From Verrucomicrobiia bacterium (GTDB taxonomy: Bacteria; Desulfobacterota; Binatia; UBA9968), in the NCBI GenBank assembly GCA_035495775.1, contig DATJFG010000187.1, positions 9,786-73,785 of the forward strand: a stretch of DNA of 64,000 nt. The letters run 5' to 3'. Below the pieces are notes generated by a model. It did not search any database, was not told the DNA's origin, and worked only from the letters and a program-made list of their open reading frames with translations. Numbering within the stretch: position 1 is the first letter of the stretch; every line of letters begins with the position of its first letter. The position numbers were made by a program, and so were the translations under genes. This document shows, one piece after another, positions 24,496 through 39,724 of the stretch.

Positions 24496-25380
24496 ATGAA
24501 CGGACTGCTTTACGACGTCTTGGCCAGCTCACGGCTGCTGCGCGACTTTAAGCGTGCGTTTCGCGATGCGACGCGACTGTCGCTCAAGCTCGTGCCGAAG
24601 AACGCCGCGACTCGATATATCACCGATGCGAGCAACACCTTCTGCGCCTTGATGGCGACCAGCGCCGCCGGCTGCGGCGTCTGTATCGAGGTCCGAAAAA
24701 AATTAGAGCAGCGGTTCGAGCGCAAACTCGCACCGCAAAAGGTATGCTGCTTCGCCGGTATGGTGGATGTCGCGGTCCCCGTCGTCATCGCTGGGAAGCA
24801 CGTCGCCACCCTTTTCGGCGGCCAGGTTTTCTGTCAAAAGCCGGGGACGCGCCAATTCGAGCGGCTTGGTCGTCAGCTGCGCCATTGGGGGATGAATACA
24901 GAGCTGCGGCTGGCGAAGCGGGCGTATTTTCAAACTCCCGTCGTCTCGCCGAAAGAATTCGGCGGCGCGGTGCGTCTGCTCACGGTTTTCGCTAACCAGC
25001 TCGCGGAGTCCGCCAACCGGTTGTTGCTGGCGAAGCATCGAGAAGAGCCAGAGGCCATTACAAGAGCAAAGACATTCGCGCGCGAGCGCGCCGGCGACCG
25101 TGTCACGCTGCGCGATGTGGCGGCACGCGCCCATTTGAGCAAGTATTATTTCTGCAAAACGTTTAAAAAGTCGACGGGAATGACTTTCACCGAATATCTC
25201 TCGCGCCTGCGCATCGAAAACGCAAAAAAGGAGCTCGACGATCCGCGCCTGGCCGTAACAGCAGTGTCGGATCGCGCAGGATTTAACTCCATCTCTCAGT
25301 TCAACCGGGCCTTTCGCCGCTACGAGGGTCGCTCGCCTACGGCTTACCGTGCCGCGCTGCGCCGTCGAGCGGCCGGCTGA
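24496..25380 (+). CDS. AraC-family regulator with PocR ligand-binding domain
   Basis: FC..C...C-FAG...AVPV...GGQV PocR pattern; C-terminal AraC HTH (YFCKTFKKSTGMTF, GFNSISQFNRAF). Confidence 0.88.
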   Translation: MNGLLYDVLASSRLLRDFKRAFRDATRLSLKLVPKNAATRYITDASNTFCALMATSAAGCGVCIEVRKKLEQRFERKLAPQKVCCFAGMVDVAVPVVIAGKHVATLFGGQVFCQKPGTRQFERLGRQLRHWGMNTELRLAKRAYFQTPVVSPKEFGGAVRLLTVFANQLAESANRLLLAKHREEPEAITRAKTFARERAGDRVTLRDVAARAHLSKYYFCKTFKKSTGMTFTEYLSRLRIENAKKELDDPRLAVTAVSDRAGFNSISQFNRAFRRYEGRSPTAYRAALRRRAAG

Positions 25381-25400
25381 TTTCTCTCTCCCTTTCCACA

Positions 25401-25427
25401 CCAATATTCGCTGAGAAAAGGCCAATA
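25401..25427 (+). promoter_or_regulatory. Putative AraC-type direct-repeat operator
   Basis: CCAATA at 25401 and 25422 (21 bp period) between araC and the RCC1 gene. Confidence 0.35.
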
Positions 25428-25532
25428 CCGACGTAGCGCCTTTTCCTCCGCCGAGCGATAGTGCGACTGTCGAAGTTCGCTCTGCAAACGCGCGGATGCG
25501 TATAGCCATTTGCGCGAAGGAAAGGAGACGAA

Positions 25533-26693
25533 ATGTTCACATTTCGTAGATGGAAAACATATTTGGGCGTGGCCGTCGCAGTGTCTCTACTGCTGGTACC
25601 GTTGATGTCATTGGCGGCCAGCGTCACGCCAGGCACGGTGACCGCGTGGGGTTATAACGGACTCGGCTGCCTGGGCGACGGCACGACAACGTCATCCTCA
25701 AAACCTGTCACCGTAGGCTTGCCTGACGGCGTGAGCGCCTTGACGATAACGGCGGGCTCCTTTCACAATCTCGCCATTACCACCGAGGGCGTATACACAT
25801 GGGGCGGTGAAGTGCTCACGCCGACGAAAATAGTGTTTCCGGCGGCCGTGACGGCGGTAAGCGACATCGCCGCAGGCGCCGGTCACAGCCTGGCGCTCAC
25901 GGACGACGGCGTCTATGTATGGGGCGGTAATAGTTCCGGGCAATTAGGTGACGGCACCACCATTTCGAAGCCTGATCCGGTGAAGATTTTCTTTCCATCA
26001 TCCGTCACGGCGATTTTTTCGGTCGCAGCCGGGTCCTACCATAGCCTCGCAGTCACCGACGATGGAGTTTACGCCTGGGGCAGCAACGGCGGCGCGCAGC
26101 TCGGCGACGGCACGCGCACCCAGCGCAACGCGCCGGTGAAGGTTGCTCTGCCGCCGGCGGTGACATCGGTGAGCGCCGTTTCCGGGGGTGGGTTTCACAG
26201 TCTCGCGATCACGAACGACGGCGTCTATGCCTGGGGCAACAACACGTTCGGTCAGCTCGGTAATGGCACGATCACCGACAGCGCGGTGCCGGTGAAAGTT
26301 GTCTTTGCCGTCGCAAAGAGGACAGCGCCGGTCAATGTCACCGCTATCGCGGCGGGTTTTTGGCACAGCCTCGCCATCGGAGATGGCAACATCTACGGCT
26401 GGGGCTACGGTAGCAATGGCGAGCTCGGCTCTCCCGCTGGCTCTACCAATGTCTTTCCAGTCAAGGCGGTGTTCCCGAAAAAGGTCGGCCCGATCGTTTT
26501 TACAGCGGTCTCGGCGGGAGACCTGCATAGCGTTGCGCTGTCGAATGTCGGCGAGGTCTACGCTTTTGGTAATAATTCCGAAGGGCAATTGGGGTCGAAC
26601 AGCAACGGGGGGCCGACGCCGACAAAAGTGCCCAACGAAGGCGGCGTCATCGACGTGAGCGCAGGGTATTACCACAGTCTTGCGCTCCACTGA
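25533..26693 (+). CDS. Secreted RCC1/BLIP-II repeat beta-propeller protein
   Basis: Signal peptide followed by about 7 repeats of V.AWG.N..GQLG.G...P...I.AG..HSLA. Confidence 0.9.
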   Translation: MFTFRRWKTYLGVAVAVSLLLVPLMSLAASVTPGTVTAWGYNGLGCLGDGTTTSSSKPVTVGLPDGVSALTITAGSFHNLAITTEGVYTWGGEVLTPTKIVFPAAVTAVSDIAAGAGHSLALTDDGVYVWGGNSSGQLGDGTTISKPDPVKIFFPSSVTAIFSVAAGSYHSLAVTDDGVYAWGSNGGAQLGDGTRTQRNAPVKVALPPAVTSVSAVSGGGFHSLAITNDGVYAWGNNTFGQLGNGTITDSAVPVKVVFAVAKRTAPVNVTAIAAGFWHSLAIGDGNIYGWGYGSNGELGSPAGSTNVFPVKAVFPKKVGPIVFTAVSAGDLHSVALSNVGEVYAFGNNSEGQLGSNSNGGPTPTKVPNEGGVIDVSAGYYHSLALH

Positions 26694-26771: not shown

Positions 26772-27731
26772 TTACTTCATAGACTTTAGCGCTTCGTCGG
26801 CCAGCGACAGATCGGCGACCTGCGAGACCTCGACATCATCTTTGATGTTGCCGGCTTCCTTTTCGAGCGCGATCAGTCTCTTCACCGCCTCGGGCTGGAT
26901 GCGCGCGTCTTTGCTGAAGAAGGACGCCGTGAAATCGTAGGATTTCTCGGCGATATCTTTAGGCATTTGGAATAGCCGCGCGATGAGATCGATGGTCTCG
27001 CGCCGGCGTTCACGGATAAAACGAAGCGCCTCGATTTCGGCGCGGATGACTTTTTTGACCTGCTCCCGCTGATTTTTAATCTTATCGAGATGCGCCGTCG
27101 GTCCGACGAACGGGAATTGCGCGACGTCGGAGGCCTTGACGAGAATCTTGAATCCATGCCGCTCGGCCTCGAATGGCCACGGCGGCGAGATCGCCGCCGC
27201 TGCGATCCGTCCCGAAAGAAGCGCATCGAGGATGAGCTTCTCTTCGCCGATGGTGAGGAGCTGTACGTCCTTCAGCGGCGTGAGGCCGTAGTGCGCCAGT
27301 ATGAGTTTAGTTACCTGGTAGTTCGTCCCGCCGGGATCCGTCACGCCGACAACTTTACCTTTTAATTCCTGCACGCTGTTTTCCTTCGCCACGAGAGCGA
27401 AGAACGGCGCCACGGTGCTGGACGCGACCGCGCGGACGGGGAGTCCGCGCATCGCTGCGCGCAGCGTCGAGCCGATGTTCATTGAATAATCGATCTGGTT
27501 CGTCGCCAGCGCGGTGATGGCGAGCCGCGGCGCAACCTGGACGAGATCGACATCCAGCCCCTGCTTCGAGTAGAAGTTCATCTGCTTGGCGACAAACGCG
27601 CTAAGGAACGGAAGGCCGCGGCTGGCGTATACGATCTTGATCTTTTCCGGCGTCTGTGCGAATGCGGCGGATGTGAGCGTCGACACCACAAAAGCCGCGG
27701 GCAGCAGAAGAGAGAAGCGGAGACGATCCAT
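26772..27731 (-). CDS. ABC transporter substrate-binding protein (NMT1/THI5/SsuA-like)
   Basis: Signal peptide; FYSKQGLDVDLV, ELKGKVVGVT, KDVQLL, ALLSGRIAA pattern. Confidence 0.85.
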   Translation of the reverse strand: MDRLRFSLLLPAAFVVSTLTSAAFAQTPEKIKIVYASRGLPFLSAFVAKQMNFYSKQGLDVDLVQVAPRLAITALATNQIDYSMNIGSTLRAAMRGLPVRAVASSTVAPFFALVAKENSVQELKGKVVGVTDPGGTNYQVTKLILAHYGLTPLKDVQLLTIGEEKLILDALLSGRIAAAAISPPWPFEAERHGFKILVKASDVAQFPFVGPTAHLDKIKNQREQVKKVIRAEIEALRFIRERRRETIDLIARLFQMPKDIAEKSYDFTASFFSKDARIQPEAVKRLIALEKEAGNIKDDVEVSQVADLSLADEALKSMK

Positions 27732-27743
27732 GATGAGCTCTGA

Positions 27744-28670
27744 TTAAGATTTCAAGAAAGTCCAGTCGAACGCCTGCGAAGGCTCCGGAGCACGGTCAAG
27801 CTTCAGTTCCCGCTGGACTTCTTCCATTGCCGCACGCAGCGCGTCGGCGCCCGGCATGCCGCTTGCCGTCCACGTGGGCGCCGCCATTTCATAGCTCCCC
27901 TCCGCCAGCTTCAGATCCATTCCCGTCCATCTCGCGATCGCCTGAACGCTCTCGCGACGGTTCGCCTTGGCATATTGAATCGCGCGCAAGGCCGAGCGGA
28001 CCATGCGTCGCACCTCGCCCGACTGCTTTTGCATATGTTCTATCGCCGTGCCGAAGCCGGCGATTGGCGATGGCACGACGTCGCCGACGAAGAGCAAACG
28101 CGGAAAGCCTTCCTGCTCGAGCATGATGTTGTACGGCGCTTCGATCAGAGTGGCGTCGATGGCGCCCGATTTGAGCGCGGCGAGACGGTTAAGGCCGCCG
28201 CCGACGGCGAGAATCTTCACGTCCTTGTCGGCCGACAGCTTGTATTTCGCAAGCGCGGCGCGCGCCATCGTATCGCTGCTCGCGCCGAAAGACGAGATGC
28301 CGACGATCTTGCCGCGGAGCTGCTCGACGGCGGATATACCCGGCTTCGCGATCAGCGCGAAGTGTGGCTTCTCGCAGATCGTGAGCACGATCCGGAGCGG
28401 CAGGCCGCGCACCGCGGCGCGGATCGTCGAGCCGAGCGCCGTCGTATAGGCGGCATCGCCGGAGATCACCGCCTGAAGCGCCAGCCGCGGGTTCATGACG
28501 ACGAAGTCGACATCGAGTCCCTCATCGCGATAGAAGCCTTTTTCCTTGGCGAGCGCGGCGGGAAACCACGTGAGCGATTTCGACGGGGCCGACACCAGGA
28601 TCTTGCTCTCGGAAAACGCCGGCCCCGGAACGAGCACAACGAGCGCGAGGCACCAGGCGAGTCGATTCAC
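27744..28670 (-). CDS. ABC transporter substrate-binding protein (NMT1/THI5/SsuA-like)
   Basis: Signal peptide; EKGFYRDEGLDV, QLRGKIVGISSFG, ALKSGAIDAT; paralog of the neighbouring gene. Confidence 0.85.
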   Translation of the reverse strand: MNRLAWCLALVVLVPGPAFSESKILVSAPSKSLTWFPAALAKEKGFYRDEGLDVDFVVMNPRLALQAVISGDAAYTTALGSTIRAAVRGLPLRIVLTICEKPHFALIAKPGISAVEQLRGKIVGISSFGASSDTMARAALAKYKLSADKDVKILAVGGGLNRLAALKSGAIDATLIEAPYNIMLEQEGFPRLLFVGDVVPSPIAGFGTAIEHMQKQSGEVRRMVRSALRAIQYAKANRRESVQAIARWTGMDLKLAEGSYEMAAPTWTASGMPGADALRAAMEEVQRELKLDRAPEPSQAFDWTFLKS

Positions 28671-28810
28671 ACCGCCTTAGTGCATCGAATCGCGCCCCCT
28701 GTCAAGATCGGCGGGAGCGGTTCTTGGCCGGCTTGAACCCTTCCGCGGCTACATGCTAAAGGGTATGCCGGATTCAGTCGGGTTCGCATCCTGCGATCAG
28801 GAGGTGACCT

Positions 28811-29629
28811 ATGTCGATTATCACGATCACCCGGGGGGCTTTCAGCGGCGGCCCGGAGCTGGCGGAGCGGGTGGCGGCGCAATTGGGCTACCGCTGTGTC
28901 AGCCGCGAAGTGCTGATGCAGGCGAGCAACCAGTACGGTATTCCCGAGGCGAAGTTTACCGAGATACTCGATACGGCGCCGCATTGGTGGGAGCGCTGGC
29001 AAGAGGGGCTACGACTCTACCGCATCGTCCTGCAGGCGGCGATGTGCGAGGTCGCCCAGGGCGGCAAGCTCGTCTATCACGGCCACGCGGGACAGGATCT
29101 CTTTCCCGGCATTGGTCATGTCCTGCGAGTCTATCTCACCGCGCCGATGAGCTATCGCATAGACCAGGTGCGCGCGCGCGAAGGTATGAGCGAAACTGCG
29201 GCGCTCCATTACATCGAGCAGGTCGATAAGGCGCGCACGCGCAGGCTCCAGGCGCTGTTCGGCGGCGATTGGCGCGATCCCAGCCGCTACGATCTTGTCA
29301 TCAACGTCGGGCATATGGCGATCGAAAGCGCGGCGCATCTCATTGTCGAAGGGTCGCGGCGCCCGGAGTACCAACCGACCGTCGAATCCGAGCGGGCGTT
29401 CCAGGACCTGACGACCGCCGCGCGAGTTCAGGCAGCGCTCATCCTCTCACCCAAAACGCGCAACCTGACGATCAACGTCAATGTGGAGCACGGCCGCGTC
29501 CGTCTCTCAGGGATTCTCGCAAATCTCGACCTCGAGCAGGAAATCATCCGTATCGCCGAGCGCGTCCCGGGCGTCACCGGAGTCGAAAGCGAATTTGAAT
29601 CGCCGCCGATCGAGTATATGTATCCCTGA
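28811..29629 (+). CDS. Cytidylate kinase-like family protein with C-terminal BON domain
   Basis: ITITRGAFSGG degenerate P-loop, VYHGH, DPSRYDLVIN; C-terminal INVNVEHGRVRLSG...VPGVTGV BON pattern. Confidence 0.82.
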   Translation: MSIITITRGAFSGGPELAERVAAQLGYRCVSREVLMQASNQYGIPEAKFTEILDTAPHWWERWQEGLRLYRIVLQAAMCEVAQGGKLVYHGHAGQDLFPGIGHVLRVYLTAPMSYRIDQVRAREGMSETAALHYIEQVDKARTRRLQALFGGDWRDPSRYDLVINVGHMAIESAAHLIVEGSRRPEYQPTVESERAFQDLTTAARVQAALILSPKTRNLTINVNVEHGRVRLSGILANLDLEQEIIRIAERVPGVTGVESEFESPPIEYMYP

Positions 29630-29726
29630 TCTGCTTCGCAGCCGTTCCGCACAGCCGCGTATCAACTCCTGCGCTTGACAGCACAGCCGCGTCTTTATAA
29701 GTCTGGTCAATGAAAGGCAGGACCGC

Positions 29727-30830
29727 ATGACAGACCTCGACAACCTCGCGCCGTTTTACGAGCGCTGGATCAGAGAACAGGGCGTGCCCGTGGTCGAAGG
29801 CTACGGCGTCGATGTCACCGACATTCCCGTCAGTGACTGGGCGCGCAAAGGCGGCCGCGGCGCGTTCGTGCAGCTCCGCGGCATGGAGGGCGCTACCGGC
29901 ATGGAGGTCGTCGAGATCCCGGCGCGGCAGGCGCTCGAGCCGGAGCGGCATCTCTATGAAAAAGTTTTTTATGTCATCAGCGGCTTGGGCTCGACCGAAG
30001 TCTGGCAGAAGGGGCAGCCGAAGCGCTTCTTCGAGTGGGGCGCAGGCAGCCTCTTCGCGACGCCCCTCAACGCATCATACCGCCTGATCAACGGCGGGAC
30101 GCAGCCGGCGCGCCTGGCCGCCGTCACGAATGCGCCGATGATCATGGACATGTTCCACAACAATGACTTCATCTTCAACTGCGACTATCAGTTCACCGAC
30201 CGGTACAACGGCGAGGAGAACTATTTCGAAGCCTCGAACAAGCGGTACGTGGTCGGCCGGGGTAATTATTGGGACACGAACTTCATCGCCGATGTGTCGA
30301 CCGCCGCAATCGACGCGCACGAGTACAAGGGCAAGGGCGGCAGCTTCACGGGCTTCGAGATCGCTGGAAATTCGCTCGTCGGGCATCTCGTCGAATGGCC
30401 GGTAGGCATGTACCACAAGGCGCACTACCACGGCTCAGGAGCGGTGCTGTTAATTTTGAGATCGGAAGGTTACACGATCATGTGGCCGAACGAGCTCGGC
30501 ATCCATCCCTACGCTTCAGGCCACGGTGATCAGGTCGTCCGCGTCGACTGGAAGCCCGGCACCGCATTCGGCCCGCCGAGCGGCTGGTTCCATCAGCATT
30601 TCAACCTCGGCACGGCGCCGGCCCGGCAGCTTGCGCTACGTTACGGCAGCAAACGGCACAAGATGGGGTTTTACGTCGCGGCGCAAAAGCGCGACGGCGG
30701 TGTTTTTATCAGCGTCAAGGAAGGCGGCACGCTGATCGAGTATGAGGATGAGGATCCCGAGATTCGGCGGATTTTCGAGGCGGAGATCAAAAAGCGCGGC
30801 ATCGCAAACGAGATGCCGGCGGTAAGATAA
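29727..30830 (+). CDS. Bicupin protein (gentisate dioxygenase-like fold)
   Basis: Two cupin motifs: PERHLYE...GSLFATPLN and YHKAHYH...WFHQHFN. Confidence 0.78.
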   Translation: MTDLDNLAPFYERWIREQGVPVVEGYGVDVTDIPVSDWARKGGRGAFVQLRGMEGATGMEVVEIPARQALEPERHLYEKVFYVISGLGSTEVWQKGQPKRFFEWGAGSLFATPLNASYRLINGGTQPARLAAVTNAPMIMDMFHNNDFIFNCDYQFTDRYNGEENYFEASNKRYVVGRGNYWDTNFIADVSTAAIDAHEYKGKGGSFTGFEIAGNSLVGHLVEWPVGMYHKAHYHGSGAVLLILRSEGYTIMWPNELGIHPYASGHGDQVVRVDWKPGTAFGPPSGWFHQHFNLGTAPARQLALRYGSKRHKMGFYVAAQKRDGGVFISVKEGGTLIEYEDEDPEIRRIFEAEIKKRGIANEMPAVR

Positions 30831-30871
30831 TAATAGAGCGGTTTCGCCGACGCACTGACGCGCTTGCCCGG

Positions 30872-31570
30872 CTATTCGCCGAGAGCGGCGCGACCGATTC
30901 CTTCCATCAACAAGCGAAAAGCGAGCAGCGCTTCGCGTGCGGCTGCGACCGCTTTCGTGGCCGATTCTTCCGTCACCGCCTGCTCCGAAATAATCTTGAG
31001 CCCCGTTTCGACGTGCTTCTCGTCCTCTTCCATGTGGATCGTGCGCGATCGCAGCTGCTGCTGATTCAATCCGAGGTGCCGCCAGGCGCGGACGTCGTTG
31101 ATGATGATGACGCCCGCCTCGGCGCGGAGCGCCGGGTGATTTATACACTCAAGGCCGGTCGTTGCGGCGAGCCCCTCGACCCAGGAACGCGAGCGGCAGA
31201 TGCTGTCGAGGGCATCGATCGCGACGGCGGTCGACGCCAGCGGGGAAGTCCTTTCGATCTGTTCACGCGTCAGCCCCAAGGCTTCGCCCTGCCGCAATAA
31301 CAAATCGTAATGCGATCCCTGTCCATCGGGTCCGAGCTCTTCCTCGTACATATTGGCGACGAGAAACTTCCGCGCTTCCGACACGGGACAATTGGATGCC
31401 ACGGCCGCGAGCCAGCACGGAAAATTACGCGTGAAATGAGAGAACTGGCTGACGAAAACGCGGCCGCCATCCTTCGTCAGGACGCCCGGTTGAACGCGGT
31501 TGAACGTCGAAGGCTCGAGATAAATCGCTTGTAAAACAATATCTTTGATCTCTTTTTCCAAGCTATTCAT
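30872..31570 (-). CDS. Heme-oxygenase-like diiron protein (CADD/PqqC-like iron-containing redox enzyme)
   Basis: NMYEEELG....SH, GLE and HMEEDEKH give the E/H/E/H/D/H ligand set of HDO proteins. Confidence 0.78.
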   Translation of the reverse strand: MNSLEKEIKDIVLQAIYLEPSTFNRVQPGVLTKDGGRVFVSQFSHFTRNFPCWLAAVASNCPVSEARKFLVANMYEEELGPDGQGSHYDLLLRQGEALGLTREQIERTSPLASTAVAIDALDSICRSRSWVEGLAATTGLECINHPALRAEAGVIIINDVRAWRHLGLNQQQLRSRTIHMEEDEKHVETGLKIISEQAVTEESATKAVAAAREALLAFRLLMEGIGRAALGE

Positions 31571-32510
31571 TGAAAATGCTGCGCGCTTCCTTATTAGCCA
31601 CCGCTGCGCGAGGTAGCTTCCTCATGCGCACGGTCAGCCAATTCCATTGATCGGGATAGCGGCCGATTAGCGCTTCGAGATAACCGACGATCCGGCGCGT
31701 GTTGCCGCTTACATCCTCATACACGCTTCCGCCCCTGATTAAAAGCAACTCGGGCTCGATGATGAGACGGAGTTTGCCATTATAATTCCGTACCAGATAC
31801 ATCGGCACGAGGGCTGCGCGGGTTCGGAGCGCGAGGCTCACCGGCCCGCGCGGCGTGTGAACGCGCTGGCCGAATAGGGAGGTCTCGACTTTGCCCTTTT
31901 TAAGGTTATCTCCGAGGATGAAGACGATCTCGCCCCTTTTCAGCGACCGAACGATGCGAAGAACCGCCGAACCTCGCGGGCGCGAAGAAATGACGTGCTG
32001 GTAGAAAAACGGAAGCTGACGTTCGATAATCGCGGTCAGGCGCTCGTCCGCCGGCATGCGGAAGAGCGTAGAGACGCGGAACCCCTCCATGCCGAGGCGG
32101 GTTCCTACCAGCACGAAGTTGCCGATGTGCGCGCCGAGAGCAATTACGCCCTTGCCTTTGGCGCACGCGGCTCTGAGATTCTCGAGGCCTTCGATGGTTA
32201 CCTTCCGGCGCGCGCGCTCCGGATCGGCGAGCTGGAGAAAACAATCGATCAGCGCGCGGGTGAAATTCTCCTGAACGCCGCGTGCAAGCCCGGCCTTCGT
32301 CGCGGCGGAATACGAGCGACCGAAGGCCGCAGTCAAGTTCTTCACGATTTGACGGCGCGGGATGATGACGCGCACGATCAGCCGAAGCGTCGGCGCTGCG
32401 ATGCGGCGGAAAACATCGGCCGGTAAAGAGCGAACAAGGAAATTGTAAACAAGAAACAGGACTTCGATCGCGCGATACGTGAGCCGATCGACGCTGCGGC
32501 CGCGCCTCAT
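31563..32510 (-). CDS. LpxL/PatA-like lysophospholipid acyltransferase (variant dyad)
   Basis: IEGLENL...GKGVIAL.AHIGNF, ILGD, LFG...TPRGP..LA, PDQWNWL..R. Confidence 0.82.
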   Translation of the reverse strand: MRRGRSVDRLTYRAIEVLFLVYNFLVRSLPADVFRRIAAPTLRLIVRVIIPRRQIVKNLTAAFGRSYSAATKAGLARGVQENFTRALIDCFLQLADPERARRKVTIEGLENLRAACAKGKGVIALGAHIGNFVLVGTRLGMEGFRVSTLFRMPADERLTAIIERQLPFFYQHVISSRPRGSAVLRIVRSLKRGEIVFILGDNLKKGKVETSLFGQRVHTPRGPVSLALRTRAALVPMYLVRNYNGKLRLIIEPELLLIRGGSVYEDVSGNTRRIVGYLEALIGRYPDQWNWLTVRMRKLPRAAVANKEARSIFNE

Positions 32511-32513
32511 TTC

Positions 32514-33674
32514 TTAGGCTTCATCGCGATAGGCGTGGCCGCGCCAATCACGGACGATCTTTTGAATCTCGGCCGACCAGGCCGATTGCAACGGATCGTC
32601 CTTCGGCCAGTCCCGCATGCAGGTTTCTCCGTCCCAATGAGAAATTGACGCTTCGGGCGGGCAGAAAACCGAACGCGCGGGAAAGCCGCGGCGGCGCGTG
32701 TCGGTGAGAATCTCCGCCGCCCTGGTGATGGAGAGAGCGATCGCGAGATCATCCAGTGCAACCGGCAGGATCGGCTTGTCGCGATGCGTGATGGCGGTGA
32801 CATGATAGACAGGACGCGGGGCGCGCGCGGCGGCGGTAAAACTGACGTCGCCGCCGAAGGGGCCTTCTTTCTGCCTTTCGTAAGGCGGAATGAATCCTTC
32901 GATCACGATCTCCGCGGTCGCCGGCACCTCGAGATCGACCGTCTCACACTTGACGAGCTCCAGCGGCGCTCTGCGGATCGCGCCGACGATCTCCGCCTCG
33001 TTCATATCGGGCGGCAGTCGTGTCGCGGCGACCCACGGCGTGACCGGCTCGGTGCCGATCGCGACGGCGAACTCCATCGAGCGGCCGCGCGCCTCATACT
33101 TCGCGTAGTATTGCTCGGCGAATTTTTGCTCCGGTAGCAGCAGCCCGCCCATCGTCTTCCTGCCATGGATCATCAAACGGTCGAGACCCCACCGGCGCGT
33201 ATCGGTATCGGGATCTTTGCCGATGTTCGCGTGCCACGTGCCGATATAAGGACCGCCGTCGTCGCGGTGGAACACCGGCGCTGGGATACTCTGAAGATCG
33301 ATGTCGGCGCCGAGCAGTATGTTCTCCTTGCAAGGTCCGCTTTTCACCAGCACAGGTCGGATCGGGTTTGCTATGCGGCAGAGATACTCCTCGACTATTT
33401 GCGCAGGGGTCGACTCCGGAGGCATATCCATCCCGACCGCGAAGCGAAGAAAGGGAGCATTTCTGCGCCGGCTCAAGCCGATCGGCGCGCCAAAAAGCCG
33501 CCATTCGGGAAAACCGCGAACGTTCGTAAAAAAGGGCGCCGGCGCGCGGAGTTCGTACGAGCGCCGCATGACGGCGGCGACCTCGAAAACCGGCTGCACC
33601 TCATCGTTGACCCTTTGTATTTCCCCCTCGTACGCGAGGCGAGCCAAATAATCACGCAAATCTGAAAAAGGCAT
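32514..33674 (-). CDS. Shortened, degenerate UbiD-family protein (Fdc1/HudA-like)
   Basis: DLRDYL, RRSYELRAPAPFF, DGGPYIGTW, VKCETVDLEVPATAEIVIEG; EGPFGG replaces EGPFGE; 386 aa versus 481 and about 530 aa for the other two paralogs. Confidence 0.8.
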   Translation of the reverse strand: MPFSDLRDYLARLAYEGEIQRVNDEVQPVFEVAAVMRRSYELRAPAPFFTNVRGFPEWRLFGAPIGLSRRRNAPFLRFAVGMDMPPESTPAQIVEEYLCRIANPIRPVLVKSGPCKENILLGADIDLQSIPAPVFHRDDGGPYIGTWHANIGKDPDTDTRRWGLDRLMIHGRKTMGGLLLPEQKFAEQYYAKYEARGRSMEFAVAIGTEPVTPWVAATRLPPDMNEAEIVGAIRRAPLELVKCETVDLEVPATAEIVIEGFIPPYERQKEGPFGGDVSFTAAARAPRPVYHVTAITHRDKPILPVALDDLAIALSITRAAEILTDTRRRGFPARSVFCPPEASISHWDGETCMRDWPKDDPLQSAWSAEIQKIVRDWRGHAYRDEA

Positions 33675-33699
33675 CGAACCTCCTTGGAGAATGCATGAT

Positions 33700-33733
33700 T
33701 TATATAATTACTTTTTGTATTGATAGTCAATAC
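33700..33733 (-). promoter_or_regulatory. AT-rich promoter with a palindromic operator overlapping the -35 box
   Basis: GTATTGA-tag-TCAATAC (33717-33733) contains TTGACT on the minus strand, followed by an AT-rich -10 region. Confidence 0.5.
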
Positions 33734-33790
33734 GTTAATTAATTTCGGCCATGAAAACGTAGGGGAATTTGAGCGGCCGTACTCCGGTCC

Positions 33791-35236
33791 CTACTTAAGG
33801 ATGTCTTTCCATTTCTCGCTGTATTTTCGCTTGAGCTCGGGCGAGAGGGCGTTGACCGGCGGGTAACGGTCTTTCCAGGCATAGGGACGGCAGGCATTTA
33901 GGATCGCACGGCTGTTGGTCGTGTCGCCGGCATCGCGCTTGTCGGGGGTGAGCGTCGGATCGAGCGAAGTGGACCAACAGTTGTCGATGACCGTGATCGC
34001 GGTTTTGGGATCGCACCGTGTGGAAACCGCCCACAGCACCTCGCCCATGTCGGTCGGATCTATATCCTCGTCAACCACCACGACGAAACGGCCGTGATAG
34101 TTTCCAGCGCGACATGCGAGCGCGGCCATCGCGGCCTGCTGCGCATGGCCATGGTAGCGCTGCTTGAGCGATACGACGATGAACGGTGCCCCGCCTCCCG
34201 GCGCCGAGCCGCCGACGAAAGACCAGACGCCGCGGATATCCGGCACGTCGGCCTTCTCCAAATAATTCCAGATGGCCGCCGCGCCGATGGGTATGCCGAA
34301 TGTGAGCGACGGCGGCTTGATCGGTGGCGCGCCGGCGATAATCGGGTCATTTCGATAATAGAGGGCTTTGACGCGGATCACCGGCTCTGTCCGTGCGCCA
34401 TGCGCATAGTATCCGGGCCATTCGCCGAACGGCCCCTCGACGCGGCTCTCCTCGGACGGCGGCGGCACCTCGCCTTCGATAGCGATTTCCGCCGCGGCGG
34501 GAATCGGCAAACCGGTTCGCTCGCCCTTAATGATGTCGACCGGCGCGCCGCGGAGCGCGCCCGCGTAGTCGAACTCCGAGACGCCGTAGGGCACCGATTG
34601 ACCGGCCGCGAGCCAGGTGAGCGGCTCCTGTCCGAAAGTGATCGCCACGGGGCACGATTTCCCCAGCGCCCAATATTTCTCGCGCATGATTCGCGCGTGG
34701 TGGCCGGGGGAAATGTAGAGGCCGAGGCGGTCGCGGTCATGCACCTGGACGCGGTAGATGCCGACGTTCACCCAAGGATCATCGGGATCGGTCGTGATGA
34801 CACAGCAGGCGGTGCCGAGATAGCGCCCGCCGTCGAGCTCATGCCAGCGCGGCGCGGGAAAAACAGTCATGTCGATGTTCGCACCGCTTTTCGTGTTCTC
34901 CAGCACCGGCCCCTCGGCGACGGTGCGCGGAGGAATCGGCTTTAAATTTTGCAGCGACTTTCGCCAGCGGAGCACCATCTCGGTCCTCGGCAAATCCGGC
35001 GGCATGCCCGAAGCGAGCGCGATGCGCCGCGGATGATTCACGAGATTCGATGCTACGCGGTACGACGGCGGGTGGCCGGGTATCTTGTCGAAGAGGAGAA
35101 GGGGATGGCTCTCGCGGTTGGCGAAGAGCTCAGTCAGCGCGCCGATCTCGAGATCCCAATCGGCGCCGTGGATATCTTCCACGTCGCCGAGCTTGCGCGC
35201 GGCATCGATAAATTCGCGGAGATCGTTGAACGGCAT
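33791..35236 (-). CDS. UbiD-family prFMN-dependent (de)carboxylase
   Basis: DGGRYLGT, NVGIYRVQ (conserved Arg), EGPFGEWPGYY, VVVDEDIDPTD, WAVSTRCDP. Confidence 0.9.
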   Translation of the reverse strand: MPFNDLREFIDAARKLGDVEDIHGADWDLEIGALTELFANRESHPLLLFDKIPGHPPSYRVASNLVNHPRRIALASGMPPDLPRTEMVLRWRKSLQNLKPIPPRTVAEGPVLENTKSGANIDMTVFPAPRWHELDGGRYLGTACCVITTDPDDPWVNVGIYRVQVHDRDRLGLYISPGHHARIMREKYWALGKSCPVAITFGQEPLTWLAAGQSVPYGVSEFDYAGALRGAPVDIIKGERTGLPIPAAAEIAIEGEVPPPSEESRVEGPFGEWPGYYAHGARTEPVIRVKALYYRNDPIIAGAPPIKPPSLTFGIPIGAAAIWNYLEKADVPDIRGVWSFVGGSAPGGGAPFIVVSLKQRYHGHAQQAAMAALACRAGNYHGRFVVVVDEDIDPTDMGEVLWAVSTRCDPKTAITVIDNCWSTSLDPTLTPDKRDAGDTTNSRAILNACRPYAWKDRYPPVNALSPELKRKYSEKWKDILK

Positions 35237-35255
35237 CGCGTTTTTCGACCAAAAA

Positions 35256-36047
35256 TTAAAAGTGCCCCGCTTCTTTGGCGTGCGTGTAAATACCGTCGTG
35301 GAACAGCGCGACGTAATCGGCGTTGGTGAGGCAGCAATATTGCGGTGACCAGCCGGGGCGCGTCCAGACGAGCCCGTCTTGCAGCAGGGTCTGGAAGATC
35401 AAGCGCGTCACTTGGCCGTGCGCCATGAGTCCTTCCTCGTGCTCCTCGAGGTCGGCCTCTTCATGCACCTGGAAGTAATGCAGGTCGGCGTCTTTGAATT
35501 TATATTTTTCGAGCAGCGCCCGGCGCCACTCACGCGCCCAGTGGCCGAACATCTCCTCGTTGAGCGAGCGCGCCCACCATTCGATCAAGGCGCCTTCATA
35601 GACCAGCCCGCGCGCGAATTCCGTCAGCGCACGGCATTCGGCGAAGACCTCACAATTGACCATCTCCTCGCGGGTCACGCCGAAGGTTTTACCCTGCTCG
35701 ATCAGGACTTGGATGTGGCCGGGGATTTTCGGATTCACGAGCTCGTCGCTGATCTTCCCGACGAACGGGCCGAGCAGCTCCGGGTGGCGGCTGAAAAATC
35801 CCATGTGGCGCTGATAAATGATCAGATGAAAATTGTTGATCTCGACCGGATAGCTATACCAGTGCGTCCAAAAAAGTTTGATTGTCTCGAGCGGCAGCCT
35901 CCCGGCGGTCAAATCGCGCATGAAATCACCCTGGAAGATTTTCTTCTGCCAGCGGGCGTACATTTTCTTGACGATGTCGTCGGTGAACGCCGTCGCTTCA
36001 TCGGCGCTCATCTTTCTGCCCCAGTCAAGGCCGCCGTTCGCGCTCAT
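35256..36047 (-). CDS. Heme-oxygenase-like diiron protein (TenA/PqqC-like fold)
   Basis: FMRDLTAGRLP N-terminus, DELVNPKIPGH, NEE, YFQVHEEAD...H putative metal ligands. Confidence 0.68.
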   Translation of the reverse strand: MSANGGLDWGRKMSADEATAFTDDIVKKMYARWQKKIFQGDFMRDLTAGRLPLETIKLFWTHWYSYPVEINNFHLIIYQRHMGFFSRHPELLGPFVGKISDELVNPKIPGHIQVLIEQGKTFGVTREEMVNCEVFAECRALTEFARGLVYEGALIEWWARSLNEEMFGHWAREWRRALLEKYKFKDADLHYFQVHEEADLEEHEEGLMAHGQVTRLIFQTLLQDGLVWTRPGWSPQYCCLTNADYVALFHDGIYTHAKEAGHF

Positions 36048-36063
36048 GCTTCGATCTTCGCCG

Positions 36064-36990
36064 TTATCCAAGCGGCAGCGACACACCGGTCTCAATCAGC
36101 CCTTGGCGCAACTCCTGGCGCTCCTTGTCGGTGAACGGCGCGCATTCCCAGCGCGGGAACCGCGGCACTGGCAGCCCGCGCATGCGCATGATCTCGCCGA
36201 AAACGACTCGGCCGTGCTCCGGCAGATAGCGCCCGACGACGTTCATGATCGCCGCGAGTTGATCGTGCGCTTTGTGCGCTTCCTCGAGCTTGCCGTGCTT
36301 CAAGCCGAGAAACATCTTGACACAGAGCTCGGGGAAGGGCGTCGACGGCGGATGGATCGCGCCGCGCACGCCGAGCGAGTAGGCGCCGTAGAGCGAGAAG
36401 ATCGAGCCGGGGAAGATGCCGACCGACTTCGGCAGCTTGAAGGCGTAGCCGAGCAATTGGTCGAAGGGGAGGAACGAAACTTTGATGCCCGCGAGCGGAT
36501 TGGGCGCGATCGCTTCGATCACCTTCAGCACCTTCGGCGGCGTGATATGGACGTGCGTCGTCTCGGTGTTGTCGTAGATGAACATCGGCGTGCCCGGCAC
36601 CGATTTGGCGATGGCTTTGTAATGAAGATAAACCTCAGCGTCGTTATGCGGATAATAGTAAGGAGGCACGACCGCGATCGCATCGACGCCGAGACCGACC
36701 GCGTGGCGCGCGAGGTCGATCGAAGAGTAAGTATTCGCCGTGCCTATGTGGAGCACGATCGGGACTTTCCCGGCAACGCGGCGCACGAGTCGCTCGGCGA
36801 CGCGCTTGCGCTCGTCGATCTCCATTACCATGCCTTGCCCGTGCGTACCGAGAGCGAAGAAGCCTTGGACACCCGCATTGACGTAAAAATCGGTCAGTGC
36901 GTCGGTTCCAGCTTCATCGACCGCGCCGTCTTCTTTGAAAGCCGTCGGCATTGGAATGAGAATGCCTTCGATCTGCCCATTGCTCGCCAT
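36064..36990 (-). CDS. DapA/NanA-family class I aldolase/lyase
   Basis: GILIPMPTAF, GTHGQG, VVPPYY, catalytic Tyr (IYDN) and Schiff-base Lys (GIKVS). Confidence 0.85.
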   Translation of the reverse strand: MASNGQIEGILIPMPTAFKEDGAVDEAGTDALTDFYVNAGVQGFFALGTHGQGMVMEIDERKRVAERLVRRVAGKVPIVLHIGTANTYSSIDLARHAVGLGVDAIAVVPPYYYPHNDAEVYLHYKAIAKSVPGTPMFIYDNTETTHVHITPPKVLKVIEAIAPNPLAGIKVSFLPFDQLLGYAFKLPKSVGIFPGSIFSLYGAYSLGVRGAIHPPSTPFPELCVKMFLGLKHGKLEEAHKAHDQLAAIMNVVGRYLPEHGRVVFGEIMRMRGLPVPRFPRWECAPFTDKERQELRQGLIETGVSLPLG

Positions 36991-37071
36991 AATTCACCTC
37001 CGAAAAACGGTCGGAAAGAATAAACTGCTTTCTCTATATGAACTCGCAGCGGCGCTTGTCAAGGTTGCGGG

Positions 37072-38013
37072 TTACTTCTTCGCTTGAATCTCTTTCATAA
37101 ATCGCCAGTCGAAGATCTTCGACTCGGGAATGTCGTCTTTGATCTTGAACTGCTCGCGGGCGATGCGGATTTCCGTATCGACGGTCTTTTTAGCGACCAA
37201 ACCATCCTCGTTCAGCGAGCGCAGCGCGTACTGGTAGATCTTCTCCACCGAGTCGCCGCTGATCTTCAGATAATCGCGCATGATCGCGAGCGTCTCTGGT
37301 TTATTCGGTCGCATGAAACGTACGCCCTTCAACGTTGCGCGGATCATGCGCGTGATCTGCTCGGGATTTTTCTGGATTTTATCCTGCGCCACGCCGAGAC
37401 CGCCGAGGCGGATATTGACGGCATCGCCGAGATAGAGCAAATCGACGAAACCCATTTGCTCGGTTTTTTGAATGTAGGCGAGATCGACCGGCGACGCGTC
37501 GGCGCTGCCGACCGCGAGTGCGCTGACGCGCTCGCTGGAGCCCCCGAGGGCCAGGAACGTGACATCTTTGTCGGCATTCATGCCCGCCTGGATCAACGCT
37601 TCGCGTACGGCGAGGTGCGGCACCGAATTCAAGCCGCTCACGGCGATGCGCTTGCCCTTCAAGTCGGCAAGAGTTTTTATGCCGGGCCGCGCGATCAACA
37701 TGTGCAGCGGCTTGTCGAGCCATCCCATCACGGTCTTGAGCGGCAACCCTTGAATGCTCGCACTGGAGACGATTCCGGAAACGGTCGAGTAATCGAGCTC
37801 GCCCGCGAGCAGCGCCGCGACCTGGATGCCGGTGCGGACAGCGATCTTCCGCACCTCCAGACCCTCTTCCTGGTAGAAGCCTTTGCGTTTGGCGATCTCC
37901 GTCGGCAGCTCGTAGAGGCCGACGGTGGAGATGCCGAGGGTGACAATTTCGCCGCGCGCCGTCACGCAGGTCACAGTTAAAAGAAGCAAGGCGGAAAAAG
38001 CGATCGTTTTCAT
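37072..38013 (-). CDS. ABC transporter substrate-binding protein (NMT1/THI5/SsuA-like)
   Basis: Signal peptide MKTIAFSALLLL; KGFYQEEGLEV, DLKGKRIAVS, KDVTFLALG. Confidence 0.85.
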   Translation of the reverse strand: MKTIAFSALLLLTVTCVTARGEIVTLGISTVGLYELPTEIAKRKGFYQEEGLEVRKIAVRTGIQVAALLAGELDYSTVSGIVSSASIQGLPLKTVMGWLDKPLHMLIARPGIKTLADLKGKRIAVSGLNSVPHLAVREALIQAGMNADKDVTFLALGGSSERVSALAVGSADASPVDLAYIQKTEQMGFVDLLYLGDAVNIRLGGLGVAQDKIQKNPEQITRMIRATLKGVRFMRPNKPETLAIMRDYLKISGDSVEKIYQYALRSLNEDGLVAKKTVDTEIRIAREQFKIKDDIPESKIFDWRFMKEIQAKK

Positions 38014-38040
38014 GCATTCTCCCGTCGAGAGACTCACAAG

Positions 38041-38106
38041 CTTCTAACCTCACGCGGTGCTTCTGTCAACGCGCTGCTTGACCGAAAAATCCCGCAGGTG
38101 TAGCGT
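38041..38106. promoter_or_regulatory. Back-to-back divergent sigma70-like promoters
   Basis: Plus strand: TTGACC (38078)-N17-TAGCGT (38101). Minus strand: TTGACA (38069-38064)-N17-TAGAAG. Confidence 0.5.
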
Positions 38107-38131
38107 CCTCAACGATAGAACGGAGGGAGTG

Positions 38132-39724
38132 ATGTCGTACTACCGCGATCTGCACGAGTGGCTGCACATGCTCGAAGAGAAGGGATACCTCAATCGCGTT
38201 TCTCGGCGCATCAACAAAGACACCGAGATGCACCCGCTGGTGCGTTTGCAATTTCGCGGGCTGCCGGAGCGGGAGCGCAAGGGCTGGTTCTTTGACAATA
38301 TCGTCGACGTGCGCGGAAAATCCTACGACATTCCCGTCGCGCTCGCCGTCATGGCGCCGAGTCGTGCCGTGTACGCGCTCGGCATGGGCGTCGAGTCGTC
38401 GCAAGAAATTCCTGCGAAATGGGCTGCGGCGCAGACGCGGCCGGTCGAGCCGCGGATCGTCTCCTCGGCTCCATGCCAGGAGATCGCCTTCACAGGTGCG
38501 GAGTTGGAAAACGCCGGCGGCCTCGGCATGCTGCCGGTGCCGATCTCGACGCCGGGCTTCGACAGCGGCCCGTTTTTCAGCTCCGGGCATTGGGTCACCA
38601 AAGACCCTGAGACGGGCGATTACAACTTCGGCACCTATCGCGCGCAGGTGAAGAGCCCGAGCCGCCTCGGCCTGTTCGCCTTCGCCTACCAGGATGTCAG
38701 CCAGCACTGGAACAAGGCGCGCGCGCGCAAGATGCCGCTCGAAGCGGCCGTCGTCGTCGGCTGCACGCCGAATCTCTCTTACTGCTCGACCGCGCGCATG
38801 CCGCCGGGCGCGGAATATGCCATCGCCGGCGCGATCGCCGGCGAGCCGCTCGAGCTCGTCCGCTGCAAGACGGTCGATCTACTGGTTCCGGCGCGAAGCG
38901 AGATCGTCATCGAAGGAATTATTCCCACCGACGAGGTCGAGCCCGAAGGCCCCTTCGGGGAGTTCACCGGCTACATGGCGCACCGGGCGCTGGACAAATT
39001 CATGAACGTGACGGCGATCACGCGGCGCCGCGATGCGATCTTTCAGGCGTTCTTGAGCCAGTTCCCGCCCAGCGAGTCGAGCATCCTGCGCGGTGTCGGG
39101 CTCGAAGGGCTTATCTATAAGATCCTCACTGTCGATAAGAAAATAAAAGGCATCCTCGAAGTGGCGCTTCCCGACGCGGCCGGAAGCCACGGCGTCGGCA
39201 TCATTCGGATGAATCGCGAGGCGGTCGGCGATCCGCTGGCGGTGCTCAACATCGTCGCCGACATGCCGCGCGCCGCGCCGAAGATTTTGATCGCCGTGGA
39301 TGAAGATATCGACGCGCGCGACGCCGAGGCGGTGCAATGGGCGATGGCCTATCGCATGCAGCCGCATCGCGATATTCGGATTCGCGACATCAAAGTCTCG
39401 ACGGCGCTCGACTTTTCTCTGGCGCCGCCTTCTTCGCGCCAAGACGCCGAGGCGCAGAGAGGCTCGGCAATCTTGATCGACGCGACCCGGAAGTGGGAGT
39501 ATCCGCCGGTGTCTTTGCCGCGGCGCGAGTTCATGGAAAAGGCGCAGGCGATCTGGCGCGAGCTTGAACTTCCGCCGCTCGAGCTCAAGAAGCCGTGGTT
39601 CGGCTATAACCTCGGCAGCTGGAGCGAGGAAGACCAGGCCGACGCCGAGCGTGCGCTGCGCGGCGAGCACTACGAGACGGGCGAAGCCCGGCGCGCGCAA
39701 CGTGGCCGCCCGCAGAAAGATTGA
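38132..39724 (+). CDS. UbiD-family prFMN-dependent (de)carboxylase
   Basis: YRDLHEWL, NFGTYRAQ, VRCKTVDLLVPARSEIVIEG, EGPFGEFTGY, VDEDID; ATG follows GGAGGG. Confidence 0.9.
   Translation: MSYYRDLHEWLHMLEEKGYLNRVSRRINKDTEMHPLVRLQFRGLPERERKGWFFDNIVDVRGKSYDIPVALAVMAPSRAVYALGMGVESSQEIPAKWAAAQTRPVEPRIVSSAPCQEIAFTGAELENAGGLGMLPVPISTPGFDSGPFFSSGHWVTKDPETGDYNFGTYRAQVKSPSRLGLFAFAYQDVSQHWNKARARKMPLEAAVVVGCTPNLSYCSTARMPPGAEYAIAGAIAGEPLELVRCKTVDLLVPARSEIVIEGIIPTDEVEPEGPFGEFTGYMAHRALDKFMNVTAITRRRDAIFQAFLSQFPPSESSILRGVGLEGLIYKILTVDKKIKGILEVALPDAAGSHGVGIIRMNREAVGDPLAVLNIVADMPRAAPKILIAVDEDIDARDAEAVQWAMAYRMQPHRDIRIRDIKVSTALDFSLAPPSSRQDAEAQRGSAILIDATRKWEYPPVSLPRREFMEKAQAIWRELELPPLELKKPWFGYNLGSWSEEDQADAERALRGEHYETGEARRAQRGRPQKD

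Follow-up and report, generated by a model that had tools for sequence, protein, structure and literature searches.

Enzymes of the UbiD family, which work with prenylated FMN (prFMN), are sought as catalysts for the reversible (de)carboxylation of aromatics and heteroaromatics. The heme-oxygenase-like dimetal oxidases (HDOs) are a young superfamily, and its known members act nearly all in natural-product biosynthesis. Both families are present in a 64,000-nucleotide stretch of contig DATJFG010000187.1 (the window), part of the 4.5-Mb assembly of an uncultured soil bacterium of Binatia (G000). Here, 13 kb of DNA (positions 26772 to 39724) hold three UbiD genes (UbiD-s, UbiD-m, and UbiD-L), two HDO genes (HDO1 and HDO2), and genes for a DapA-family lyase (DapA-like), a bicupin, an acyltransferase, and three solute-binding proteins (SBPa, SBPb, and SBPc). 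The order DapA-like, HDO2, UbiD-m is conserved in dozens of species. The reading we prefer, with confidence that is about evenly balanced, is a catabolic module for a (hetero)aromatic carboxylic acid built round this older three-gene core; we infer both the substrate and the order of the steps.

Which described systems come closest? For UbiD-m it is PhdA, the phenazine-1-carboxylate decarboxylase of M. fortuitum, whose structure is PDB entry 7PDA (PMC10850782) and which begins the degradation of phenazine-1-carboxylate, that is, the catabolism of an N-heteroaromatic acid (PMC10850782, PMC7591250). UbiD-m matches 7PDA end to end at ~50% identity (E = 5.7e-133) and shares with PhdA both its three-domain architecture (PF20695, PF01977, and PF20696, the N-terminal, Rift-related, and C-terminal domains) and the EGPFGE motif, which reads EGPFGEW in UbiD-m and is invariant across 20 sequences. 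The second Glu of this motif is the acid-base catalyst (E282 in Fdc1). Unlike in the PhdA/PhdB system, no UbiX (PhdB) gene adjoins UbiD-m, the sole UbiX being encoded on another contig, and we know of no HDO or DapA-like partner described for PhdA. At least five other G000 paralogs share 45-49% identity with UbiD-m, and its substrate therefore need not be a phenazine. UbiD-L (PF01977 + PF20696; motif EGPFGEF) has its best PDB matches in 6H6X and 6H6V (E = 4e-48), which we take to be HmfF of the 2,5-furandicarboxylate decarboxylase system HmfF/HmfG. This closest solved relative is likewise a UbiD in the catabolism of a heteroaromatic diacid, but the relation is distant, hmf genes are not nearby, and UbiD-L is longer at both its N and C termini.

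The two HDOs are barely alignable with each other, and their nearest described counterparts are the p-aminobenzoate synthase CADD (CT610) and the known HDOs. HDO2 has no family match above threshold in Pfam or NCBIfam. Its AlphaFold (AF2) model (pLDDT 91) superposes best on CtCADD in Foldseek (TM 0.84-0.85), followed by PqqC, TenA, UndA, BesC, and FlcD. The metal-ligand pattern of CADD is E, H, E, H-x3-D-x2-H. Invariant candidate ligands in HDO2 are E102, H111, E164, H195, D199, and H203, so that the last motif is H-x3-D-x3-H, with x3 rather than x2. HDO1 is an ordinary member of its family (PF14518, 83.5 bits against a cut-off of 28.9) whose PDB sequence matches are a TenA-domain protein, CADD (1.9e-10), and PqqC; its residues E76/E77, H87, E141, H179, D183, and H186, positions read from sequence alone, are invariant in 13 sequences and fit the CADD-type pattern. 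The identity of the cluster HDOs to CADD is only ~20%, and neither qualifies as a CADD-type p-aminobenzoate synthase (TIGR04305 cut-off 200; HDO1 72.7 bits, HDO2 no match). Known HDOs (CADD, UndA, BesC, FlcD, and SznF) act mostly in biosynthesis, and no paper was found that reports UbiD partners for them. PqqC, the last enzyme of pyrroloquinoline quinone (PQQ) synthesis, has the same fold as HDO2, but pqq genes are not adjacent to HDO2 and the equivalog cut-off of 240 (TIGR02111) is reached by neither protein (HDO2 no match at E<=0.001; HDO1 34.8 bits). The name "PQQ biosynthesis protein C," which JGI gives to many HDO2 orthologs, is accordingly not supported by these comparisons. The HDO2 subfamily is small (a search of 1.84 billion representatives yields 268 clusters at E<=1e-3) and is centred on Binatota. 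A few proteins in the representative library (P0079, P0084, P0085, P0109, and P0181; 483-519 aa) consist of two HDO2-like halves in tandem.

DapA-like finds its closest solved relatives among putative N-acetylneuraminate lyases (NALs) and the 2-keto-3-deoxygluconate aldolase YagE (E = 3e-29 to 2e-25), with which it shares the class I aldolase fold and the lysine. NahE-type hydratase-aldolases are the DapA/NAL-family lyases of aromatic catabolism. The Schiff-base lysine is kept (GIK(V)S), with GTHGQG and IYDNTETT in place of the motifs of dihydrodipicolinate synthase (DHDPS); these two motifs are confined to a small subfamily of its own. It is not a true DHDPS (TIGR00674, 101.1 bits against a cut-off of 206.15; GTTGE and YN.P.R motifs missing), and it scores below every NCBIfam equivalog cut-off. 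The canonical dapA of G000 (C101_13), with canonical motifs, lies elsewhere in the genome.

The initial annotation of this DNA recognised no described pathway that pairs UbiD with HDO, and we too found none to which the gene set maps: no NCBIfam equivalog cut-off is reached, and a literature search found no paper that pairs UbiD with heme-oxygenase-like proteins, or UbiD with Binatia or Binatota. The available portions of HDO sequence-similarity-network papers and of papers on Binatota and aromatics do not mention a UbiD-HDO pairing. The core would be a catabolic-type gene cluster with an undescribed combination of enzymes, no characterised pathway having been found that joins these families.

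What sets the core apart is its conservation. A DNA search of 30 relatives (G016 was left out; twenty regions were compared) found the cluster at 70-83% DNA identity in genomes of the same genus and only parts of it further out. Across the genus and family the order SBPc, DapA-like, HDO2, UbiD-m, HDO1, bicupin plus kinase-like/BON gene, SBPb, SBPa is kept. A scan with an HDO2 alignment, one genome per species, yielded 80 loci, 41 with an HDO2 ortholog, whose neighbours were mapped by tblastn. These orthologs are 69-93% identical and nearly all belong to Binatia or "Deltaproteobacteria" metagenome-assembled genomes (MAGs). DapA-like lies directly upstream of HDO2 in all 36 species-level loci with upstream flank (at reduced identity or coverage in L049, L056, and L067), and of the 39 loci whose downstream flank is available, 32 have a UbiD-m ortholog as the next gene, the exceptions being L039, L042, L044, L045, L046, L047, and L062. 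The core genes keep 70-95% protein identity in dozens of species. A peptidyl-prolyl isomerase (PPIase) gene stands divergently upstream in 24 of the 41 loci. Sampling across the class finds HDO2-like genes (E<=1e-60) in 7/7 and 2/2 genomes of f1 and f2, but in 0/6 of f3 (f1 to f3 being families of the window's order) and in 0/105 genomes of 16 other families. Outside Binatia, a Terriglobia chromosome (L076) carries an operon-like row of a PQQ dehydrogenase, a lactonase-like propeller, HDO2-like, DapA-like, two unknown genes, a bicupin, an ABC permease, and an SBP, and the HDO2-like/DapA-like pairing therefore reaches beyond the class.

The remaining genes have a different history. The initial annotation had named unlinked genes in related genomes as the observation that would count against it; for the core this fails, as the counts above show, while HDO1, the bicupin, UbiD-L, SBPa, SBPb, SBPc, the acyltransferase, and UbiD-s keep their linkage to the core no further out than the genus or family, and UbiD-s and the acyltransferase come and go even there. 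Among the HDO2-ortholog loci, HDO1 is adjacent in only 4, the bicupin in only 3, and SBPc lies upstream of DapA-like in 9/41 (L031-L033 and L036-L039 among them; at L035 the contig ends before this point). UbiD-L adjoins the DapA-like/HDO2 pair at six loci, L031, L032, L033, and L038 in the window's genus (g1) and L044 and L047 in f2. In f2 it takes the position of UbiD-m as the neighbouring UbiD, and in most f1 species it is not adjacent. At two loci the place of UbiD-m is occupied by another protein, one of the Amidohydro_2 family (L062) and one with PYC_OADA/HMGL-like carboxylase domains (L045); both are, judging by their domains, decarboxylases of other types, Amidohydro_2 being the family of PicC-type decarboxylases. 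The picture these comparisons suggest is of an older DapA-like/HDO2 pair, almost always with a UbiD beside it, to which further genes were added in the window's lineage. The 13-kb interval is a mosaic and not one ancient or uniform pathway; in addition, its UbiD-s is degenerate. Many f1 species (L039, L050, L054, L057, L058, L060, L064, L065, and L068 among others) have a CoA-transferase A/B pair (PF01144) upstream of the triad, just past the PPIase gene, with a 145-aa gene between the subunits. This pair, which is not at this place in G000, might belong to the triad's route.

How might such a module work? SBPc, with SBPa and SBPb nearby, would capture the compound and hand it over to a transporter encoded elsewhere. 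UbiD-m would then strip off a ring carboxylate, using prFMN from the unlinked UbiX, and HDO2, as a CADD-like two-metal O2-activating enzyme, would oxidise the ring or a side chain. DapA-like, as a Schiff-base lyase, would split the resulting 2-oxo acid into pyruvate and an aldehyde. HDO1, the bicupin, and UbiD-L may be genus-level additions that lengthen the route or broaden its substrate range, and UbiD-s may be a non-catalytic partner. The order given here for decarboxylation, oxidation, and cleavage is provisional. Two familiar comparison systems are the nic/pic clusters and the Bordetella Bug family. Clusters of the nic/pic type, for pyridine carboxylic acids, follow the same logic of binding protein, decarboxylase, oxygenase, and ring cleavage, but other enzyme families do the steps, and neither a molybdenum hydroxylase nor a NicX-type dioxygenase is present in this cluster. 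The Bug-type expansion likewise provides many binding proteins without permeases of their own, but the SBPs of this cluster are of the NMT1/SsuA type and not the TctC type.

The initial annotation saw neither a ubiX gene nor a permease in the interval, and the whole window contains no ubiX and no ABC permease. G000 has one UbiX for ~41 UbiDs, and ~90% of its SBPs are orphans; both absences are the genome's rule and not a peculiarity of the cluster. Only 22 of the ~198 NMT1-type SBPs lie within 4 genes of an ATP-binding cassette (ABC) ATPase-like gene. The SBPs account for about 5% of all genes called, and 157 of them have a hydrophobic N terminus; this looks like a large orphan-SBP system. The single UbiX-size flavoprotein (C30:15537-16049) is encoded beside a CTP-dependent riboflavin kinase. 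Its gene row (C30:14338-17244, or L117:4338-7244) comprises an XdhC-like gene, this archaeal-type kinase, and a gene with an FMN-dependent dehydrogenase fold, and may be a dedicated prFMN supply operon for the ~41 UbiDs.

The context looks catabolic: paralogous HDOs adjoin catabolic-type genes, other decarboxylase types replace UbiD-m at L062 and L045, and the L076 row combines an HDO2-like/DapA-like pair with a bicupin, a PQQ dehydrogenase, and transporter parts. Elsewhere in G000, the neighbours of HDO genes include amidase, class II aldolase, alpha/beta hydrolase, FAH-family, CoA-transferase, and molybdenum hydroxylase genes. Contig C6 carries an amidase, a class II aldolase, a long UbiD, a PhdA-like UbiD, a bicupin, an HDO1-like HDO, and a hydrolase; on C83 an HDO2-like gene stands with an FAH-family gene and a CoA-transferase, and on C84 an HDO stands with a molybdenum hydroxylase, a bicupin, and a glyoxalase-fold protein. 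HDO-SBP proximity is enriched in G000 (13/23 against 5.2 expected, a value reached by 0/1000 permutations), as is UbiD-HDO proximity (6/41 against 1.2, reached by 4/1000). Other Binatia species have a second conserved array, HDO, UbiD, SBP, HDO, UbiD, SBP, which frequently has a UbiD-L-like gene in its vicinity. A quick maximum-likelihood tree of 59 UbiDs places those adjacent to HDO genes in at least four orthogroups, three in the PhdA-like clade and the fourth being UbiD-s, and HDO adjacency requires 5 label changes against 15.8 in shuffles. On C70 (45524-47149; L112:9524-11149) a PhdA-like UbiD gene between two HDO genes is interrupted by a single TAA codon in frame, which leaves ORFs of 207 and 330 aa and may reflect pseudogene formation, a sequencing error, or read-through. 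The proposal of the initial annotation, a new route of uptake, decarboxylation, oxidation, and cleavage or else a biosynthetic island, is partly supported: the core is conserved and its context looks catabolic, but the interval is not one pathway.

A number of observations weigh against the catabolic interpretation. In G018, UbiD-m follows DapA-like directly and HDO2 is missing; at least one lineage can thus do without HDO2. SBPc is tied to the core in some species only, and UbiD-SBP proximity in G000 is at chance (12/41 against 9.8 expected from permutations). Three of the six HDO-near UbiDs belong to this very cluster and supply half of the signal, and in the closed genome of the relative G019 (72 UbiD matches, 27 HDO positions) only 3/27 HDOs lie <=3 kb from a UbiD, against 2.4 expected, a result on which a general HDO-UbiD proximity rule was rejected. 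The known relatives of HDO2, CADD and PqqC, work in biosynthesis; the core, for its part, is surrounded by housekeeping genes and matches the PPIase gene next to it in conservation, as would also be expected if it were biosynthetic. Nor is it clear what the acyltransferase and the kinase-like/BON protein would do in a catabolic route.

Could the core instead build a compound? On this account, DapA-like would join pyruvate to an amino-aldehyde to give a partly reduced N-heterocyclic dicarboxylate, HDO2 would aromatise it in a PqqC-like oxidation, and UbiD-m would remove one carboxylate, leaving a small pyridine- or quinoline-type acid for use in chelation or signalling or as the precursor of a cofactor. 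The genes DapA-like, HDO2, and UbiD stand in the order of the proposed steps, the nearest folds to HDO2 are the biosynthetic CADD and PqqC, its orthologs are tightly constrained (69-93% identity, dN/dS ~0.05), and the DNA around the core is of the housekeeping kind, with PPIase and ccm genes next to it. The chemistry of the DapA family also favours this account: its enzymes build the tetrahydrodipicolinate ring, and those of the NahE type make quinaldic acids from 2-aminobenzaldehydes. DapA-like itself, however, is far under the DHDPS cut-off and without GTTGE and YNxPxR-type motifs; the core is linked to exported binding proteins, the paralogous contexts are catabolic, and the exporter, tailoring, and regulator genes that typify biosynthetic clusters are missing. 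The Amidohydro_2 protein in the place of UbiD-m in one species fits either direction equally. We consider a biosynthetic core unlikely, if still to be taken seriously. A related speculation, which we hold to be doubtful to a like degree, is that the DapA-like/HDO2/UbiD triad is a hitherto unseen three-enzyme route in which a CADD/PqqC-like two-metal oxidase, a prFMN decarboxylase, and a Schiff-base lyase jointly build or dismantle an N-heteroaromatic carboxylic acid, for example by converting a tetrahydropyridine or quinoline dicarboxylate to a mono-acid arene. If true, the triad would connect the HDO and UbiD superfamilies in function for the first time, and this order of Binatia would amount to a natural library in which (de)carboxylases come with matching oxygenases and binding proteins.

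Much less probable is that the genes have no joint function, the locus being a chance pile-up of members of expanded families and the core genes acting independently. G000 does offer ample material, with 40 Pfam matches to UbiD (41 ORFs by iterated profile), ~198 NMT1-type SBPs, 22-23 HDOs, 35 bicupin-related cupins, and 11 DapA-family members in 4.5 Mb. UbiD and SBP genes meet at chance level, HDO-UbiD proximity is unenriched in G019, and the outer genes vary between close relatives. Because of these paralog numbers and of the chance-level proximity, family counts within 13 kb say little in this organism; the evidence beyond chance is conserved gene order and not co-occurrence. A pile-up does not account for a core whose gene order is common to dozens of species, with 70-95% protein identity and gaps of 16-19 bp, for purifying selection on every gene, or for HDO-UbiD adjacency that recurs in separate orthogroups. 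For the outer genes SBPa, SBPb, kinase-like/BON, and acyltransferase, chance may be the explanation. Least probable of all is that HDO2 is an accessory of UbiD (an oxidase maturing prFMN, or a bound subunit) and not a pathway enzyme: prFMN needs oxidative maturation, PqqC-type proteins oxidise tricyclic cofactors, and HDO genes directly adjoin PhdA-like UbiDs in several paralogous pairs, but few of the 41 UbiDs of G000 or the 72 of G019 have an HDO neighbour, UbiD-m is kept without HDO2 in G018, HDO2 is more tightly tied to DapA-like (36/36 loci), and, as a weaker point, no fusion of HDO2 to UbiD or DapA was recognised in an exhaustive search of representatives, a word-based search, itself weak evidence, having likewise turned up no longer forms of HDO2.

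To return to the catabolic module, what might its less conserved members contribute? The three UbiDs are only 27-32% identical to one another, and UbiD-s, whose best PDB matches are 6DA6 and Fdc1, has lost both a domain and a motif residue. Alignment with its 489-493-aa orthologs reveals an in-frame deletion of ~100 aa in the C-terminal domain, so that UbiD_C is absent, and its motif reads EGPFGG, without the second Glu (A, D, or G stands there in other short forms). The short form (389-391 aa) is found in G002, G004, G009, and G011 and the full-length form in G007, G015, and L035, a Binatia MAG; in G001 the gene call gives a protein of 428 aa whose alignment contains a gap, and UbiD-s is absent from G006, G008, and G010. 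Because this degenerate copy is retained under selection (dN/dS 0.10 across five species), UbiD-s is probably a non-catalytic partner, possibly a pseudoenzyme subunit. A supposed change of the catalytic Arg to Pro was withdrawn: the changed Arg sits in a DGGRY motif, and the GxYR arginine, which we take to be the catalytic one, is kept as GLDR.

The initial annotation likened the bicupin to the gentisate type, which none of our comparisons supports. It has no PDB sequence match at E<=0.01 and no NCBIfam match, and its two-barrel AF2 model, of moderate confidence (pLDDT 71), has oxalate decarboxylase (OxdC), MncA, and vicilins as its best Foldseek matches (TM ~0.48). Because of a conserved His-rich site in the C-terminal barrel (invariant H233, H235, H289, H291, and N293), it is likely to be a metalloenzyme. 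The binding proteins match the Pfam NMT1 model, yet all three score under the SsuA subfamily cut-off, and no permease or ATPase gene adjoins them. SBPa and SBPb share 33% identity, and orthologs of SBPa (79-82%) adjoin SBPb in relatives of the genus; the best PDB match of SBPc reaches only 5e-9.

The wider lineage may be more striking than the cluster itself. Each of the seven genomes sampled from f1 to f3 (G000, G002, G008, G019, G020, G032, and G040) has 27-72 PF01977 matches, the closed 4.46-Mb genome of G019 having 72, and UbiD is not found in 38/39 genomes from 13 other Binatia families. The UbiD radiation is thus confined to one order of Binatia. To our knowledge, no other organism has a similar number of UbiDs, and this is the largest lineage-specific radiation of the family; no paper on it was found. 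NMT1-type SBPs follow a similar trend, first-look candidates numbering 244-256 in the genus, ~96 in other f1 genera, 34 in f3, and <=9 in other Binatia families, and HDOs number 13-30 per genome in g1, G040, and G019 but 0-6 in other Binatia families. With 27-72 UbiDs, ~200 mostly orphan SBPs, and as many as 30 HDOs in a genome of 4-5 Mb, this soil lineage would seem to practise an unusual scavenging of many carboxylated ring compounds from soil organic matter. For the cluster, the main value lies in enzyme discovery, where a conserved UbiD-HDO operon would offer both fields a new reaction context and a three-gene expression target. A practical consequence may be that PhdA-like paralogs are miscounted as phenazine degraders in homology-based metagenome surveys.

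The gene set of the interval (Table 1) was derived from an ORF listing and a codon-usage gene call, with domains assigned by Pfam and equivalogs by NCBIfam cut-offs. All of the genes named in the initial annotation are present where it placed them, the UbiDs being as divergent as it stated; it left out one, the cytidylate-kinase-like/BON gene, which brings the total to twelve.

Table 1. Features of the interval, with coordinates in the window
Feature	Position	Strand	Evidence
SBPa: exported NMT1/SsuA-like solute-binding protein, 319 aa	26772..27731	-	PF09084 7.4e-19; signal-like N-terminus
SBPb: exported NMT1/SsuA-like solute-binding protein, 308 aa	27744..28670	-	PF09084 2e-22
Cytidylate-kinase-like (PF13189) + BON-domain protein	28811..29629	+	PF13189 4.8e-36, BON 3.1e-11
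Bicupin, 367 aa, convergent with HDO1	29727..30830	+	Cupin_2 4.1e-8
HDO1: heme-oxygenase-like dimetal oxidase, 232 aa, last operon gene	30872..31570	-	PF14518 2e-23
LpxL/PatA-like acyltransferase, 315 aa, variable operon member	31563..32510	-	PF03279 3e-31
UbiD-s: degenerate short UbiD paralog, 386 aa	32514..33674	-	PF01977 4e-60, no UbiD_C
UbiD-m: PhdA-like prFMN decarboxylase, 481 aa, core gene	33791..35236	-	PF01977 3.8e-62; all three UbiD domains
HDO2: CADD-like heme-oxygenase-fold protein, 263 aa, core gene	35256..36047 (ORF to 36095)	-	sub-threshold PF14518 7e-4; fold model
DapA-like: DapA-family class I lyase, 308 aa, core gene	36064..36990	-	PF00701 4.7e-45
SBPc: exported NMT1/SsuA-like binding protein, first operon gene in this genus	37072..38013	-	PF09084 7.3e-23
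Divergent intergenic region, 118 bp, operon vs UbiD-L; presumed promoters	38014..38131	.	sequence read
UbiD-L: long UbiD, ~530 aa from ATG, divergently transcribed	38132..39724 (ORF from 38057)	+	PF01977 4.9e-53 + UbiD_C

The likely true starts are 36047 for HDO2 (the resulting 263-aa form is 100% identical to a database protein), 38013 for SBPc (ribosome-binding site and ATG), and 38132 for UbiD-L (ATG, preceded by a GGAGG ribosome-binding site). On the minus strand, SBPc, DapA-like, HDO2, UbiD-m, UbiD-s, the acyltransferase, and HDO1 follow one another with gaps of 81, 16, 19, 116, and 3 bp and then an 8-bp overlap. The UbiD-HDO pairings described earlier as two adjacent operons are present, but by arrangement these seven genes are better read as a single operon from which UbiD-L diverges. 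Beyond the bicupin and kinase-like/BON genes, both on the plus strand, SBPb and SBPa resume the minus strand. All three SBPs have signal-like hydrophobic N termini, and none of the enzymes does. Purifying selection acts on all 12 genes (dN/dS 0.046-0.16 in up to five species), with values of 0.098 for SBPb, 0.069 for kinase-like/BON, 0.075 for HDO1, 0.056 for UbiD-m, and 0.16, the highest, for the acyltransferase.

The surroundings within the window are housekeeping DNA (aro genes, cmk, rpsA, mutS, trpS, scpAB, ccm, and tricarboxylic acid cycle genes). A scan for the sigma-54 consensus gave no match close to the cluster, and the window as a whole had fewer matches than its shuffles; sigma-70 and terminator counts were not above shuffles either (7 vs 4.8 and 17 vs 18), and 38014-38131 holds no convincing sigma-70 match. 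Is there a local regulator? The initial annotation saw none, and a gene for a PocR-sensor/AraC regulator does lie 1.4 kb from the cluster (24496-25380), but in this genome alone. It was rejected as the cluster's regulator because the same position in G002, G009, and G011 is without it. The adjoining stretch (23385-26693) holds an FRG-domain protein gene, this regulator gene, and a gene for a six-repeat RCC1-like protein, the latter two forming an insertion between FRG and SBPa seen only in G000.

The acyltransferase, which is absent from G001, G006, G008, and G015, matches PF03279 (109 bits) and does not qualify as an LpxL or LpxM protein, scoring far under the cut-offs of 17 NCBIfam models (at best 85.5 bits against 273). 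The kinase-like/BON gene is conserved beside the bicupin gene in relatives of the genus and family. Its product, a PF13189/BON fusion, has a degenerate P-loop region, and in L046 the gene stands beside an LpxL-like gene; the kinase-like/BON protein and the acyltransferase may form a separate lipid-related unit.

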